A DNA stretch of 64,000 nucleotides from Bacteroidota bacterium (GCA_008933805.1 WBUH01000002.1:314696-378695), one strand, 5' to 3'; shown: positions 24,880 through 37,262, counted from the first letter of the stretch. The notes: generated by a model from the sequence alone, not told the origin. Numbers and translations: made by a program.

Positions 24880-25165
24880 CGCAAAGACACTAAGCCACAA
24901 AATATTGTGATTAGCGACTTAGTAGTTGTGAAACCAAAATTAAAACCGTCAAACTAAATGGTCTCACTTTGATTCTCGATACTGTACGTTAGTGTTCCGT
25001 TTCGAATGGTTTTAAACCATTCGAAACAAACCACTACGAAAGAGGCGGGCTTTATGCCCGTCGGTGCAATAGGTTAAAAACTATAGTTTTTAAAATTACC
25101 TTCTTGTGCAGGACTTAAGTCCTGCACAAGAAGGTAATCGTAACAGTTCAGGATTTTAATTCCGT
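24880..25165. repeat. repeat-rich intergenic region: 40-nt motif shared with the 32.3-kb repeat, TTAA-centred hairpins and composite GGACTTAAGTCC palindrome copy 1
   Basis: Positions 24883-24925 are about 80% identical to the core of the 32.3-kb tandem repeat. 24988-25016 is a perfect palindrome gtttcgaatggttttaaaccattcgaaac. 25095-25138 is a perfect 44-nt palindrome attaccttcttgtgcagGACTTAAGTCCtgcacaagaaggtaat, followed by a ggattttaattcc hairpin. Confidence 0.7.
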
Positions 25166-25192
25166 ATATCTCGTACAAACAGTAGTCCCTGC

Positions 25193-25864
25193 TTATACAT
25201 CAAAAACAACAGGGTAATGGTCAGAAACTACGAAAGTATCTAAGGTGATGCCCGTAACAGCCGGAGCAGCATTCTTCACCATGTAGTCGTATTTTCTTTT
25301 TGTTGACGGATAGGTGGGCTTATCCGGAGGGCATAAAACCCCGTGCGGAGGTACCCAAGTGTTTGGCTCGCGGTTGTAATCACCGGCAACATACCAATTG
25401 GGCGTACCCATAGCATACACATTGTTAATCAATCCGGGGTCGTCGTTACCATTACCTGAGAAACCGTGAATACTGAATACATAGCGACCACCCACCAGCA
25501 TACCGATGGCAGGCCTGCCGCCGGCTAAACCGGGAGGCGCATACAAAAGGTTAGCAGGGGCAGTTTGTGAAGCAAGGGCAATGTTTACCCTGTTGCCGTT
25601 TGGGTCGGTTTGTGCCCATACTACGTAGTAAGTAACCTTTGAAGGTTTCCATGTGTAATACCCTGTAACCAGTCCAGCGGGGGGATTCCCAATCCATGCG
25701 GGGGCTACCGCCGCAACGGCTGATGGAGGAGCAGCTCCGCACTCTTGCAGAGATACTATGTCAGAATCCACTTTATCAGTGGCTAATAATTGTTGGACAC
25801 CGATAGTCCATTTGCTGTCGGCGCTATTCGTAGCGCCTTGCATGTTCCATGTTGTAATTCTCAT
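25193..25864 (-). CDS. CdtB-like DNase I-fold nuclease (endonuclease/exonuclease/phosphatase family)
   Basis: N-terminal TWNMQGA and LQECG motifs, and a C-terminal SDHYPV motif matching the cytolethal distending toxin B catalytic His region. No signal peptide. Confidence 0.6.
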   Translation of the reverse strand: MRITTWNMQGATNSADSKWTIGVQQLLATDKVDSDIVSLQECGAAPPSAVAAVAPAWIGNPPAGLVTGYYTWKPSKVTYYVVWAQTDPNGNRVNIALASQTAPANLLYAPPGLAGGRPAIGMLVGGRYVFSIHGFSGNGNDDPGLINNVYAMGTPNWYVAGDYNREPNTWVPPHGVLCPPDKPTYPSTKRKYDYMVKNAAPAVTGITLDTFVVSDHYPVVFDV

Positions 25865-25903
25865 AATGCTTAGATAGATTTTATATGATGTGTGAAAGTG
25901 AGA

Positions 25904-26626
25904 TTAGAAAACATACTCTACAGGAAAATGGTCGGAAGCTTGTTTATTCAGCACCACACCCCTGTTAAAACCGGTATAGGCTACCATATAATCCAGCCAA
26001 CTGCCGTTATCGTGTGTAGCGCTTCCGGGCGGCCAAATCACCCCCGCGGGGTTCCATTCGGTATCAGGGTCTTTATTAAAATCACCTGCGGCAAACCAAA
26101 CCCGGTATCGGTCGTTAATGGTTTCTATTAACCTTGGAGCATCACCACCTTTGGTTCTTGCATTGGCATGAATGCAGAAAAAATTGGGCACACCAAGGTT
26201 TATTCCTATAGCAGGGCGAGTAGAAAATGTATCAGTAACGGTAACGGGCTCAACGTATAACAGGTAGTAAGGCTTTATGAGTGATAAAATGGTAAGATTC
26301 ACCCTGTGTCCGTCGTCGTCGGTTTCCATCCAAAAAACATAAATGGGTATATCTTCCTCTCTACCGTTTTTAAACGGTCGCCAAATAAATTGGGTATAAT
26401 TTACCCCGTCGGGTGGTTTATTGCCTTTAAAACGGGTGGGGTAGGGTATAAGCTCAATGTTTTCCTCATATACCCTCATAAAATCAGGGTTGGCAAGTGG
26501 CCATCCGCTTTCCTGCAAACAAACAATATCGGCTTTATACTTTTTTATAAACTGAGTGGCTACAATAGCCCACTTGCTGCCGTCACTGTCATTTGCGCCT
26601 TGCAAATTCCAAGTAATTAATTTCAT
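25904..26626 (-). CDS. CdtB-like DNase I-fold nuclease, paralog
   Basis: TWNLQGAN, LQESG and SDHFPV motifs. Tandem paralog of the upstream gene. Confidence 0.6.
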   Translation of the reverse strand: MKLITWNLQGANDSDGSKWAIVATQFIKKYKADIVCLQESGWPLANPDFMRVYEENIELIPYPTRFKGNKPPDGVNYTQFIWRPFKNGREEDIPIYVFWMETDDDGHRVNLTILSLIKPYYLLYVEPVTVTDTFSTRPAIGINLGVPNFFCIHANARTKGGDAPRLIETINDRYRVWFAAGDFNKDPDTEWNPAGVIWPPGSATHDNGSWLDYMVAYTGFNRGVVLNKQASDHFPVEYVF

Positions 26627-26661
26627 AAGTTAGATAGCAATAGATAGTTAGTAACAGCAAA

Positions 26662-35104: not shown

Positions 35105-35701
35105 ATGGCCGATGGCGAGCTAATTAGTTTTTTAAACAGTTTTGACACTCTTACCGATGAAGAGCGCGAGGCAATTGCACAAAACCTTGTGGTAAAATCA
35201 TACAAAAAAGGGGAAGTGTTATTGCGTGAAGGAGAACTTTGTGATGAGTGCTTTTTTTTACTGAAAGGCTGTTTGCGTCAATATTACTTAACAGACAACG
35301 ATGAAAAAACTACGGCATTTTATACTGAGGGGCAGGCCGCAGTTTCAGTGGCCAGCTATGCTACTCAAACACCTTCAAAACATTTTGTTGCTTGTGTTGA
35401 AGACACCACTGTGATAGTGGGCAATTTGGGACAGGAAGAGAAAATGTATGCGAAATTCCCGAAACTGCTCACAATTACTCGAAGTATGATTGAGGAGGAC
35501 TATGGTAAAACGCAGGAAGATTTTGCGGCATTTATCACCTCATCTCCTGAAAAAAGATACCTGGATTTATTGAGCAATCGTCCCGAGCTTTTGCAACGTG
35601 TTCCGCAACACCAAATTGCCAGTTATTTGGGCATTACCCCCGAATCGTTGAGCAGGATTAGAAAACGGGTAGCTCAAAAGACTAAACCTGCCGTTGGGTA
35701 A
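35105..35701 (+). CDS. Crp/Fnr-family transcriptional regulator (tandem paralog)
   Basis: Same architecture, with a near-identical C-terminal HTH (PESLSRIRKR). Confidence 0.7.
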   Translation: MADGELISFLNSFDTLTDEEREAIAQNLVVKSYKKGEVLLREGELCDECFFLLKGCLRQYYLTDNDEKTTAFYTEGQAAVSVASYATQTPSKHFVACVEDTTVIVGNLGQEEKMYAKFPKLLTITRSMIEEDYGKTQEDFAAFITSSPEKRYLDLLSNRPELLQRVPQHQIASYLGITPESLSRIRKRVAQKTKPAVG

Positions 35702-36398
35702 ACGTTTTACTTTTTACTATCAACCATATAGCTATGGCAAGTTCTCCCAATGCCATAGGTAAGCTTAAAACAGTTTCCATACTTGCTATCTCGTTGCTGT
35801 ATTGCGGTGTTATTATTTTGGTAAGGGAAATACCCGTATAACACACTGCTGCAATTGTTGTGAGGGCAGCAAGAAATGCAGGAATTTGAACGGTCTTAAA
35901 CTGTAAGTAGGCAAAGCAGCCAAGGTGGATGCCAAACAATAATAACCCTGCCGTCCAAATGCTGTTAAAGGTTTCTATTGAAAGTAAGACAAGTTGGTTG
36001 TGAAGGGATAACGAGGTTCCGTTACCAGTAAGCAATAATGCTACAGCCAGCGCTCCTATTGCAACGGCTAAAATGCAAGAATAGGACAGACGGAGCAACG
36101 CATTAAGGGTGGCTATGTTTTTGCTCACCGGTTTAAAAAAATGATACATAGCCCACGCTGATAGCACATCCAGCAGAAAAATAACTATCCATCCTATAAA
36201 ACCTGTTCTGAACAGTATAGGCGATTGTTGAATATTAATAACGGTTTGTGCGGCATTGCCTCGTGCCCAAAGCGTATTTAATGAGAAACTGTAAGAATAG
36301 CCGGCCACGATGGCCATGATAATTAATACTGTACCTATAAATGAAGCGGTTTTCTGTTGGCAGTATTCTGTTGATGTTAGCGCTGACATTGTTTTCAT
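35682..36398 (-). CDS. multi-pass membrane protein (DUF4386-like)
   Basis: Five to six TM helices. Paralog of the next gene. Confidence 0.45.
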   Translation of the reverse strand: MKTMSALTSTEYCQQKTASFIGTVLIIMAIVAGYSYSFSLNTLWARGNAAQTVINIQQSPILFRTGFIGWIVIFLLDVLSAWAMYHFFKPVSKNIATLNALLRLSYSCILAVAIGALAVALLLTGNGTSLSLHNQLVLLSIETFNSIWTAGLLLFGIHLGCFAYLQFKTVQIPAFLAALTTIAAVCYTGISLTKIITPQYSNEIASMETVLSLPMALGELAIAIWLIVKSKTFTQRQV

Positions 36399-36470
36399 TG
36401 TTTATGCCTGCAAAGTTGCTGTTACTGTTTTTGCCGCGCATTGACTTTTGGTAAGAAATGCGGTTTAGGT

Positions 36471-37130
36471 TTAAATGGTATGGTTAGCTGTTGTAAATCC
36501 TTTTACCATTAAGCGAATGGCAAATACCAATTCAAATAAACCGCCGGGTATGGAAAGGTACAGGCCAAAGGGGAGTCCAGCCATTTCTAACAATGAACCT
36601 GTTGCAAGCAATACATAACCGCCAATAGCCCAAATGGACATGTAACGGGGGATGATTTGTTGCTGTTGCAAGAACTTAAAGAACGGTAAGCTGCCTAAAC
36701 TCAAGACTAACATTGCGGATTGATACGCCCAAAAGAGAGTGTTTTTGGTGCTGCTTACATTGTGTTGAGTTGAATATGTAAAGTATAATACTGTAGCGGC
36801 TATGATAATGAACCCCAATGCTTCTAACAAGCGGGTGAGGCGGTATGCTTTGGTTACGGCAGGGTTTAAGTGCGAGAGAGTAGTATGGGTTACTATTCCT
36901 ATTAATGCCACGCACAGTGCATTTACAAGCACCAAAGCAGCTCCGATGATAAGAGAGTTGCTGTTTATTGCAGTGCTGTTTAATGCTGTGCTGATAAACC
37001 CATCGGCGGTGCTGTATGCAAAAAACGGAATGATGAATAAGATGCCTATGTATAGTGCGTTTCTTTTGGGGGTGTTCATGTGAATTTGATTAACGGGTAC
37101 AAAGCTATTGCCCGCGTTTTCCAAACTCAT
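36471..37130 (-). CDS. multi-pass membrane protein (paralog)
   Basis: Similar TM topology to 35682-36398. Confidence 0.45.
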   Translation of the reverse strand: MSLENAGNSFVPVNQIHMNTPKRNALYIGILFIIPFFAYSTADGFISTALNSTAINSNSLIIGAALVLVNALCVALIGIVTHTTLSHLNPAVTKAYRLTRLLEALGFIIIAATVLYFTYSTQHNVSSTKNTLFWAYQSAMLVLSLGSLPFFKFLQQQQIIPRYMSIWAIGGYVLLATGSLLEMAGLPFGLYLSIPGGLFELVFAIRLMVKGFTTANHTI

Positions 37131-37159
37131 TGATTTGGGTTAAGAAGTGTGATGGGTTG

Positions 37160-37262
37160 TTAAATGGGGTTGAAACCCCATTCTGTTAAAATTACACTAT
37201 GCAACGGGACTTAAGTCCCGTTGCATAGTGTAATTTCAAAAGTGGTGGATTTTAATCCGCCT
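37160..37262. repeat. composite palindromic element copy 3
   Basis: ggggttgaaacccc hairpin, then a 44-nt palindrome attacactatgcaacgGGACTTAAGTCCcgttgcatagtgtaat at 37191-37234, then a ggtggattttaatccgcc hairpin. Confidence 0.7.

Follow-up and report, generated by a model that had tools for sequence, protein, structure and literature searches.

What are the three long perfect palindromes that lie in a 64,000-nt stretch of Bacteroidota bacterium DNA (GCA_008933805.1 WBUH01000002.1:314696-378695, the whole stretch being referred to as the window), and what keeps them perfect? All three are 44 bp long, lie at 25095-25138, 29617-29660 and 37191-37234 (copies 1, 2 and 3) and have the form ATTAC-N11-GGACTTAAGTCC-N11'-GTAAT, i.e. 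shared ends and a shared 12-mer core joined by variable arms of 11 nt in each copy. An initial annotation of the window had proposed the three palindromes, and all of them are confirmed here; its coordinates were right for copies 1 and 3, its start for copy 2 (29627) is 10 too high and its arm length of 8-12 nt has to be corrected. We consider it probable that the palindromes belong to a non-coding module family resembling repetitive extragenic palindromic sequences (REPs) and their paired form (REPINs), and that this family is that of a single-copy, vertically inherited Y1 (HUH) transposase of the subclass 1.2 insertion sequence (IS) type IS200/IS605 in a Bacteroidia lineage. The system is best described as being similar to REPs and their REP-associated tyrosine transposases (RAYTs), built on a subclass 1.2 IS200-type transposase and having a central palindrome that is kept perfect at the DNA level.

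Three-hairpin modules and their distribution

Each palindrome is the centre of a composite of three hairpins. A GGATTTYAATCC-type hairpin is placed 40 bp downstream of the palindrome centre in 3/3 window copies, in agreement with the initial annotation, and a GGTTnAAACC-type hairpin is placed 38-39 bp upstream, easily recognised in copies 2 and 3 but degenerate in copy 1. An upstream GG-type hairpin had been claimed for every copy, which holds for copies 2 (29589-29608) and 3 (37163-37182); the true copy 1 hairpin is the degenerate one at 25069-25084 (plus strand, aTAGGTTAAAAACTAt), which has a weakened stem and can be aligned to the family's GGTTRAAACC-apex hairpins. The hairpin probably meant for copy 1, a perfect GAATGGTTTTAAACCATTC at 25004-25022, is part of an adjoining member of a different hairpin-repeat family (family B, the family of the three copies being family A), which occupies 24997-25063 on the minus strand and carries two hairpins of that family, GTTTCGAATGGTTTTAAACCATTCGAAAC and GGCGGGCTTTATGCCCGTCGG. 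The copy 1 palindrome reads ATTAC-CTTCTTGTGCA-GGACTTAAGTCC-TGCACAAGAAG-GTAAT and is followed by the linker cgtaACAG and a degenerate right small hairpin (25139-25164, plus strand, GGATTTTAATTC). Copy 2 comprises the left small hairpin with the linker ttgttgag (29589-29616, plus strand, cgtgaGGTTTAAACCccgcg), the palindrome ATTAC-CCCATCGGTGA-GGACTTAAGTCC-TCACCGATGGG-GTAAT and the linker ctccAAAG with the right small hairpin (29661-29687, plus strand, aCCGGATTTCAATCCGGt). Copy 3 is built in the same order from the left small hairpin with the linker ctgttaaa (37163-37190, plus strand, AATGGGGTTGAAACCCCATT), the palindrome ATTAC-ACTATGCAACG-GGACTTAAGTCC-CGTTGCATAGT-GTAAT and the linker ttcaAAAG with the right small hairpin (37235-37261, plus strand, GGTGGATTTTAATCCGCC). 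The three hairpins share the apex form GGNTT-(0-2)-AANCC and their centres are 38-40 bp apart in all window copies. For single-stranded DNA, the minimum-energy fold comprises three hairpins in copies 2 and 3, whichever strand is folded, and in copy 1 the central hairpin with degenerate side hairpins; the z-scores of the window copies are -9 to -13 on either strand. Each of the three copies is intergenic, as had been noted before; the open reading frame (ORF) 28711..29694 covers copy 2 only by a TTG extension, its likely start being the ATG at 29505, and copy 2 lies in a divergent promoter region.

In the window the 12-mer core is found 3 times, compared to a chance expectation of 0.04. A family scan using one genome per species, in which ATTAC, core and GTAAT were fixed and the arms were left free, yielded 114 loci, nearly all from 4-5 related Bacteroidia metagenome-assembled genomes (MAGs). 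The carriers are CALRQL02 (~95% identical to the window), JAMIFM01 (~85% identical), JBBKVO01, OZ252261.1 and CAZOZL01, with at least 62 family-A copies in CALRQL02, at least 37 in JAMIFM01, at least 12 in JBBKVO01 and at least 11 in OZ252261, none of them being located inside a predicted gene. These numbers, together with a Y1 transposase gene flanked on both sides (see below), support the option of a REP family or miniature mobile element that had been raised at the outset. The arms are exactly complementary in 101 of 126 non-redundant matches and very diverse in sequence. Singleton matches in Moritella, Glaciecola, Nodularia, Gastranaerophilales, an uncultured Bacteroidetes bin and Arcicella do not have exactly complementary arms and are most likely chance matches. 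Contigs labelled 'Agrobacterium sp.' (CALRQL02), 'Burkholderiales' (CAZOZL01) and 'Oscillatoria amoena' (JASVEI01) carry this Bacteroidia-type repeat and are probably mislabelled bins or co-cultured contaminants.

An alignment of 97 copies defines a module of ~100-115 nt. Its left half consists of a small hairpin with a variable stem and a GGTTRAAACC apex, followed by the linker CTKTTRNA; its right half consists of the linker YNYAANAG followed by a small hairpin with a variable stem and a GGRTTTYAAYCC apex. The covariation of the stems, claimed from the three window copies, is evident across the family: 92.4% of the cells are paired, compared to 68% in shuffles and 33-43% with slid partners, and changes on both sides are present in all three helices. 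A covariance model built from the alignment matches only the three copies within the window, and because it scores the two strands almost equally (121 and 120 bits) the whole module is nearly dyad-symmetric. The model also detects core variants in which the outermost core pair is changed with compensation, TGACTTAAGTCA and CGACTTAAGTCG, the truly invariant core thus being GACTTAAGTC. Some family-A copies form a subfamily with the outer inverted repeats GGCTGTCTCAAAAG...CTTTTGAGNCAGCC. Modules are located between co-directional (59%), convergent (22%) and divergent (18%) genes, i.e. in the background intergenic mix. A literature search for the 12-mer core found no paper, and clustering of the neighbouring proteins for a recurrent partner gave only housekeeping families (ABC transporters, PKD, sigma-54 activators) and no recurring regulator gene.

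The Y1 transposase gene and the layout of the modules

A motif scan of ~0.96 Mb of fetched loci identified only one HuH..Y protein, of 141 aa, encoded at 2774-3199 of locus L114 in CALRQL02, with an ortholog in JAMIFM01 (L099). It scores 101 bits against Pfam Y1_Tnp and 81.5 bits against the NCBIfam IS200/IS605 model (cut-off 55), and its best PDB matches are the TnpA proteins of ISDra2 and IS608. The alignment invariants are PDHVH, the Y of YIxNQ and Q, and the tyrosine motif YIQNQQKHH represents the Y---Q--HH signature of subclass 1.2, a low-copy group found mainly in Cyanobacteria and Bacteroidetes (Quentin et al. 2018, PMC6006769). Each genome has one copy of the gene (one contig per protein cluster), placed between pckA and clpB, and its position beside clpB is kept from 95% to 68% identity.

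In L114 the gene is flanked by complete family-A modules at 2551-2678 and 3185-3312, the downstream module beginning right after the stop codon. Family-A modules are present on both sides of the gene in CALRQL02, in JAMIFM01 and in JBMQOA01 (L121, a 90% homolog); in JASVEI01 (L115, a 95% homolog) the upstream module is complete and the downstream module is cut by the contig end, and for two 68% homologs the contig starts within the palindrome core of the upstream module. The arrangement is found beyond this locus. A 59% paralog in JAMIFM01 (L119) has family-B three-hairpin modules on both sides (1070-1196 and 1628-1754), family B being common in related MAGs in the module type seen at 24997-25063 of the window. 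A 39% metagenome homolog (L128) has a three-hairpin module on both sides with the TTAAAA and TTTCAA types of small-hairpin apex known from family A, and these modules are detected by the family-A covariance model at 42-44 bits. At 33/48 loci of distant homologs the upstream and the downstream flank have 14 or more exact nt in common, all of them small palindromes, compared to 7/240 of mismatched controls. The transposase relatives returned by a metagenome scan were all distant (35-42% identity), and the scan added no family-A locus. Related-strain short-read contigs (L116, L117, L118, L122, L125, L126) begin or end exactly within the GACTTAAGTC core, the 617-nt transposase contig L116 having a core at both ends, so the palindromes evidently break short-read assembly graphs.

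The module has a distinct layout on each strand: small hairpin, 8-9 nt linker, A-TTAC, a 34-nt inner palindrome (N11-GGACTTAAGTCC-N11'), GTAAT, NNNN-A[A/C/T]AG and small hairpin. In IS608, TTAC is the left cleavage and target site, which is recognised by the guide AAAG directly 5' of the hairpin foot, and cleavage on the right takes place 10 nt 3' of the right hairpin (PMC3201880). In 62% of 172 linkers the modules have ANAG as the tetranucleotide directly before the hairpin, AAAG being the commonest form, and the right linkers of window copies 2 and 3 end in AAAG, identical to the IS608 left guide. With respect to the sense strand of the transposase gene, the module upstream shows the half resembling a left end and the one downstream the half resembling a right end.

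Modules are gained, lost or broken at TTAC and at arm boundaries, and orthologous intergenic persistence is mostly just past stop codons. A near-identical strain (L124, a contig of SRR26511550 with an identical neighbouring EEP protein) retains hairpin-linker-ATT and departs from the window exactly where copy 1 has AC-arm-core; window positions 24922-25135 (214 nt, comprising AC-arm-core-arm, the left hairpin and the family-B element) are replaced by ~110 nt of unrelated sequence. The replacement begins with GGGAGGTCTCAAAAGT, which resembles the outer inverted repeats around some family-A copies, and its left junction lies inside the ATTAC of copy 1. Solo halves exist in both forms: L004 and L072 show flank-TTAC followed by AC-arm-core-arm-GTAAT-linker-hairpin without the left hairpin, and L049, L063 and L095 show hairpin-linker-ATTAC-arm without the core. 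As far as analogy and correlation go, these natural breakpoints, which lie at TTAC or no more than 2 nt from it, fit the TTAC layout. Within the window, a fourth family-A copy is preserved as a remnant at 32629-32645 (plus strand), having kept only the 3' half of a small hairpin (CAATCCCGTTAAAT..., CAATCCCGT); because CALRQL02 still has arm-core-arm-GTAAT-linker-hairpin at this site (L077, centre 3220; about 3199-3290), ~50 nt were deleted in the window. We also observed a 51-nt direct duplication of hairpin-linker-ATTAC-arm-GG which brackets a 216-nt insert at a family-A arm/core boundary in OZ252261.1 (L095 4900-5190), the distal duplicate matching the right arm perfectly and the proximal one with two mismatches.

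These data raise the question whether the locus simply represents an ordinary, still-active IS200-like IS with derivatives of the type of miniature inverted-repeat transposable elements (MITEs), the modules being right-end/left-end relics or TnpA-driven miniatures without domestication or a host role. The protein passes the IS200/IS605 model and not the RAYT model, the order hairpin-linker-TTAC | ... GTAAT-guide-hairpin matches the IS608 right and left ends, and close genomes differ by the presence or absence of copies, by broken halves and by local duplications, all as expected for such an element. However, the gene is single-copy per genome and stays beside clpB from 95% down to 68% identity, and the units flanking it are complete three-hairpin modules rather than complementary halves. 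Furthermore, all three window copies have orthologous sites in CALRQL02 and copies 1 and 3 in JAMIFM01, where the counterpart of copy 2 is cut within the left arm by a family-B repeat, and ~40% of the JAMIFM01 copies are at orthologous sites. Since CALRQL02 and JAMIFM01 differ at 0.415 of their four-fold degenerate sites (78 flanking gene pairs), most copies are old rather than recent insertions, and we regard a still-active IS as unlikely.

Evolution of the arms and the level of the structure

Core and ends are kept in orthologous copies, but 1 to 10 of the 11 arm positions are changed, and almost every change is exactly mirrored in the other arm. The copy 1 palindrome is identical in its CALRQL02 ortholog (L071), differs in one mirrored pair in JAMIFM01 (L026) and shows a single G:T mismatch in a close strain (L127), which is likely an intermediate. 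The copy 2 ortholog in L071 has the arms CATCTCGGTGA/TCACCGAGATG, in which three adjacent positions are changed and mirrored within a flank that is 96.6% identical, a pattern that fits one templated event. For copy 3 the palindrome is identical in L077 and changed at 3/11 pairs in L108, all mirrored, and the left small hairpin of the JAMIFM01 ortholog carries a compensated pair in its stem.

For 13 orthologous pairs between CALRQL02 and JAMIFM01 the arm divergence is 0.392 on the left and 0.392 on the right with near-identical counts per pair (ungapped counts, a gapped comparison having under-counted the differences), the core divergence is 0 and the linkers diverge by 0.22-0.26. The arms are thus substituted at about the neutral single-site rate given by the four-fold degenerate sites, and a mismatch is present in just 1-2% of the arm pairs at a given moment. 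Selection for pairing by itself is not sufficient to explain this, because it should slow substitution well below the neutral rate, and absence of constraint is not the answer either, because many mismatches would then remain. The combination of a neutral rate and rare mismatches speaks for one arm being frequently copied from the other, as judged from comparison of sequences. The compensatory changes had been read initially as selection on structure; this holds for the two small hairpins, and for the central palindrome arm copying at the DNA level offers the better fit, as it accommodates a neutral rate in a stem that is still perfect.

The pairing statistics of the three helices differ. Among 2260 central-stem pairs the non-Watson-Crick ones are 6 G:T, 14 A:C and 7 other, i.e. 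they are not wobble-biased, and mirrored arm changes with almost no G:T point to a DNA-level palindrome rather than an RNA stem. The right small hairpin has 26 G:T compared to 8 A:C pairs (p=0.003), G:T being tolerated on the strand where the hairpin is 3' of the palindrome, and the left small hairpin shows the mirror pattern with 10 G:T compared to 31 A:C (p=0.0015). Because the G:T tolerance is strand-specific, the functional unit looks like 5'-GTAAT-N8-hairpin, present once per strand in a head-to-head arrangement.

This bears on two further explanations. According to the first, the modules act mainly as RNA, either as bidirectional 3'-end structures (terminators or mRNA stabilisers that protect from exonucleases) or as a small structured RNA, the stems being maintained by selection for RNA folding and the adjacency to the transposase being incidental. 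The modules lie near stop codons (median distance to the nearer gene end 17-55 nt), their small hairpins tolerate G:U on the strand on which they come after the palindrome, both strands fold strongly, and E. coli REPs are known as mRNA stabilisers (cited in PMC6006769). However, Rfam gave 0 matches in the window at gathering thresholds; with the limit relaxed to E<=10, just generic miRNA-precursor hairpins came up, far below threshold. A tRNA/tmRNA search found none. The central palindrome is without a T-run and none of the three was called by a terminator scan, which did call the small right hairpin of copy 3 and a canonical terminator nearby at 32646-32679. The 22-bp central stem is almost devoid of G:U pairs, 18% of the copies lie between divergent genes as in the background, the two strands score alike in the covariance model, and selection on RNA pairing by itself would not give arms evolving at the neutral rate. 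Of the options of the initial annotation, structured RNA and terminator are therefore not supported, and we consider a principal role as RNA improbable.

According to the second explanation, the modules are duplex binding sites or cruciforms for an unrelated host protein, for example a nucleoid protein or a dimeric regulator, reading three GGNTT..AANCC palindromes ~39-40 bp apart. The shared apex form, the regular spacing of the centres in all three window copies and the position of copy 2 in a divergent promoter region would agree with this. Duplex binding leaves unexplained, however, why the variable basal stems of all three hairpins are paired and why G:T tolerance is strand-specific, and the gene recurring beside the modules encodes a single-strand DNA transposase rather than a regulator, so that binding by a host protein appears very improbable.

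The comparison of close genomes also revealed differences around the copies. CALRQL02 has a ~380-bp tandem duplication (L092 5217-6010), each unit carrying a 42-bp palindrome variant, and the window has unrelated sequence in its place (3842-3957), including another hairpin repeat (GTCATTGCGAGAAAGGCGATAGCCTGACGAAGCAATCC). The window stretches 27906-28705 and 35073-36495 are missing from the 95%-identical CALRQL02 contig; the former holds the ORF 27961-28698 (245 aa, no Pfam match) and the latter a second Crp-like gene (35105-35701) and a membrane protein (35682-36398). Copy 1 is located ~30 nt beyond the stop codon of the first gene (minus strand), and immediately right of it two tandem paralogous Exo_endo_phos-like genes follow on the plus strand (25193-25864 and 25904-26626). 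The idea that CTTAAG in the core is a restriction site was rejected, as outside the modules CTTAAG is just mildly under-represented, like many 6-bp palindromes. In the whole window several 6-bp palindromes are strongly depleted, among them CTGCAG (2 observed, 16.6 expected) and CATATG (1 observed, 9.9 expected), which hints at restriction-modification pressure.

Proposed mechanism, comparison to known systems and significance

The assignment to a REP/REPIN-like family of a subclass 1.2 transposase suggests a mechanism consisting of hairpin binding, cleavage at TTAC and arm-to-arm copying, which we think is fairly likely. In this model the transposase would bind single-stranded DNA at the small hairpins. 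The role of the IS608 guide AAAG would fall to the ANAG directly 5' of the hairpin foot, and that of the IS608 cleavage and target site to the TTAC at the palindrome base. In each module, a half of right-end type would be fused at TTAC to one of left-end type, and folding of the inner palindrome would bring TTAC beside the guide. The inner arms would carry no sequence information and drift neutrally, their Watson-Crick perfection arising from repeated DNA-level copying of one arm from the other, either by template switching or hairpin repair at replication or by repair synthesis primed by a transposase nick at TTAC. A specific form of the last route, in which the transposase nicks each strand at TTAC| and the 3'-OH, paired with the GTAA of the opposite arm, primes recopying of the arm and creates a self-perfecting palindrome, is put forward tentatively and is rather unlikely. 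If true, mutations would soon be erased or mirrored, which would explain the neutral arm rate, the exact complementarity from the first base after TTAC and the mirrored multi-base changes, and the three-hairpin modules would be previously unrecognised DNA partners of subclass 1.2 Y1 transposases.

Several observations weigh against the proposed assignment. The protein reaches only 36.8 bits in the NCBIfam RAYT model (REP_Tyr_transpos), below the cut-off of 80, and subclass 1.2 was reported to be generally without IS200-type terminal structures (Quentin et al. 2018, PMC6006769). The association of family A with the transposase represents one orthologous locus, though parallels exist for other families. 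REPs are defined by an unpaired GTAG (or CGTC) tag at one hairpin end (PMC3733652); no such tag is present in the modules, GTAG being found as the four bases before the hairpin in 2/172 linkers, and the nearest equivalent is GTAAT, which is paired with ATTAC. The search pattern required ATTAC and GTAAT, so part of their invariance is due to ascertainment, and the roles of TTAC and ANAG as putative cleavage and guide sites are drawn by analogy with IS608. The breakpoint in L124 is ATT|AC, 2 nt off the IS608-like TTAC| position, and a between-genome search for a clean empty site or target duplication found none, returning complex replacements, a deletion remnant and one site at which a family-B hairpin is present in the other genome. 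Finally, an RNA 3'-end element would show the same proximity to stop codons.

Of known systems, the modules can be compared to REP/REPIN-RAYT systems (REPtrons), with which they share short extragenic palindromic repeats in tens of copies per genome, mostly just after genes, a head-to-head pairing of units, long persistence at orthologous sites and a single-copy, vertically inherited Y1 HUH gene flanked by repeats. They differ in the protein, which falls into the IS200/IS605 model with the subclass 1.2 signature and not among RAYT/TnpA-REP (class 2), and in the unit, since a REPIN consists of two near-identical REPs folding together, whereas the unit described here is a three-hairpin composite with a 44-bp perfect central palindrome and hypervariable arms. 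With IS608 and ISDra2 the system shares a Y1 transposase homologous to the solved TnpA structures with HuH and Tyr motifs intact, subterminal hairpins, a TTAC beside the module boundary and an AAAG-like tetranucleotide directly 5' of the hairpin foot; the IS608 right end with hairpin, 10 nt and cleavage site has its counterpart in hairpin, 9 nt and TTAC. In contrast to these mobile, multi-copy elements, the gene described here is single-copy and syntenic. TTAC is 47 nt away from the hairpin with a 34-nt palindrome in between, compared to 19 nt in IS608, one TTAC would serve both halves and both strands, and the dispersed units resemble right-end/left-end junctions rather than an order from left end to right end.

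For the arms, work on template switching at quasipalindromes describes imperfect inverted repeats becoming perfect intramolecularly (PMC7202029, PMC8604942). Correction of this Ripley/Lovett type would account for the mirrored, at times multi-nucleotide, arm changes; it is known as a mutational hotspot at single loci, whereas here it would be a standing maintenance of a whole repeat family, and the copying could alternatively be primed by a transposase nick at the stem base. Integron attC sites likewise have conserved short ends and a variable self-complementary middle and are recognised as folded single-stranded DNA, but no integrase, cassette array or shared orientation was found here, and in contrast to attC sites, which are defined by extrahelical bases, the family-A apex is conserved and the stems are perfect.

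The central palindrome represents a clean natural case of 'covariation without RNA', combining exact Watson-Crick mirroring, a neutral rate and no wobble pairs, which covariation-based structured-RNA screens would misread, and it provides a natural system to measure arm-to-arm copying in short palindromes. On the practical side, the palindromes break short-read assemblies at the core. If the proposed assignment is true, Y1 subclass 1.2, which was described in 2018 without IS-like ends or known repeats, would gain a DNA partner with a testable site layout, and domesticated transposase systems of the REP/RAYT type would come to include another, new branch of proteins and, in Bacteroidia, a new module design with three hairpins.

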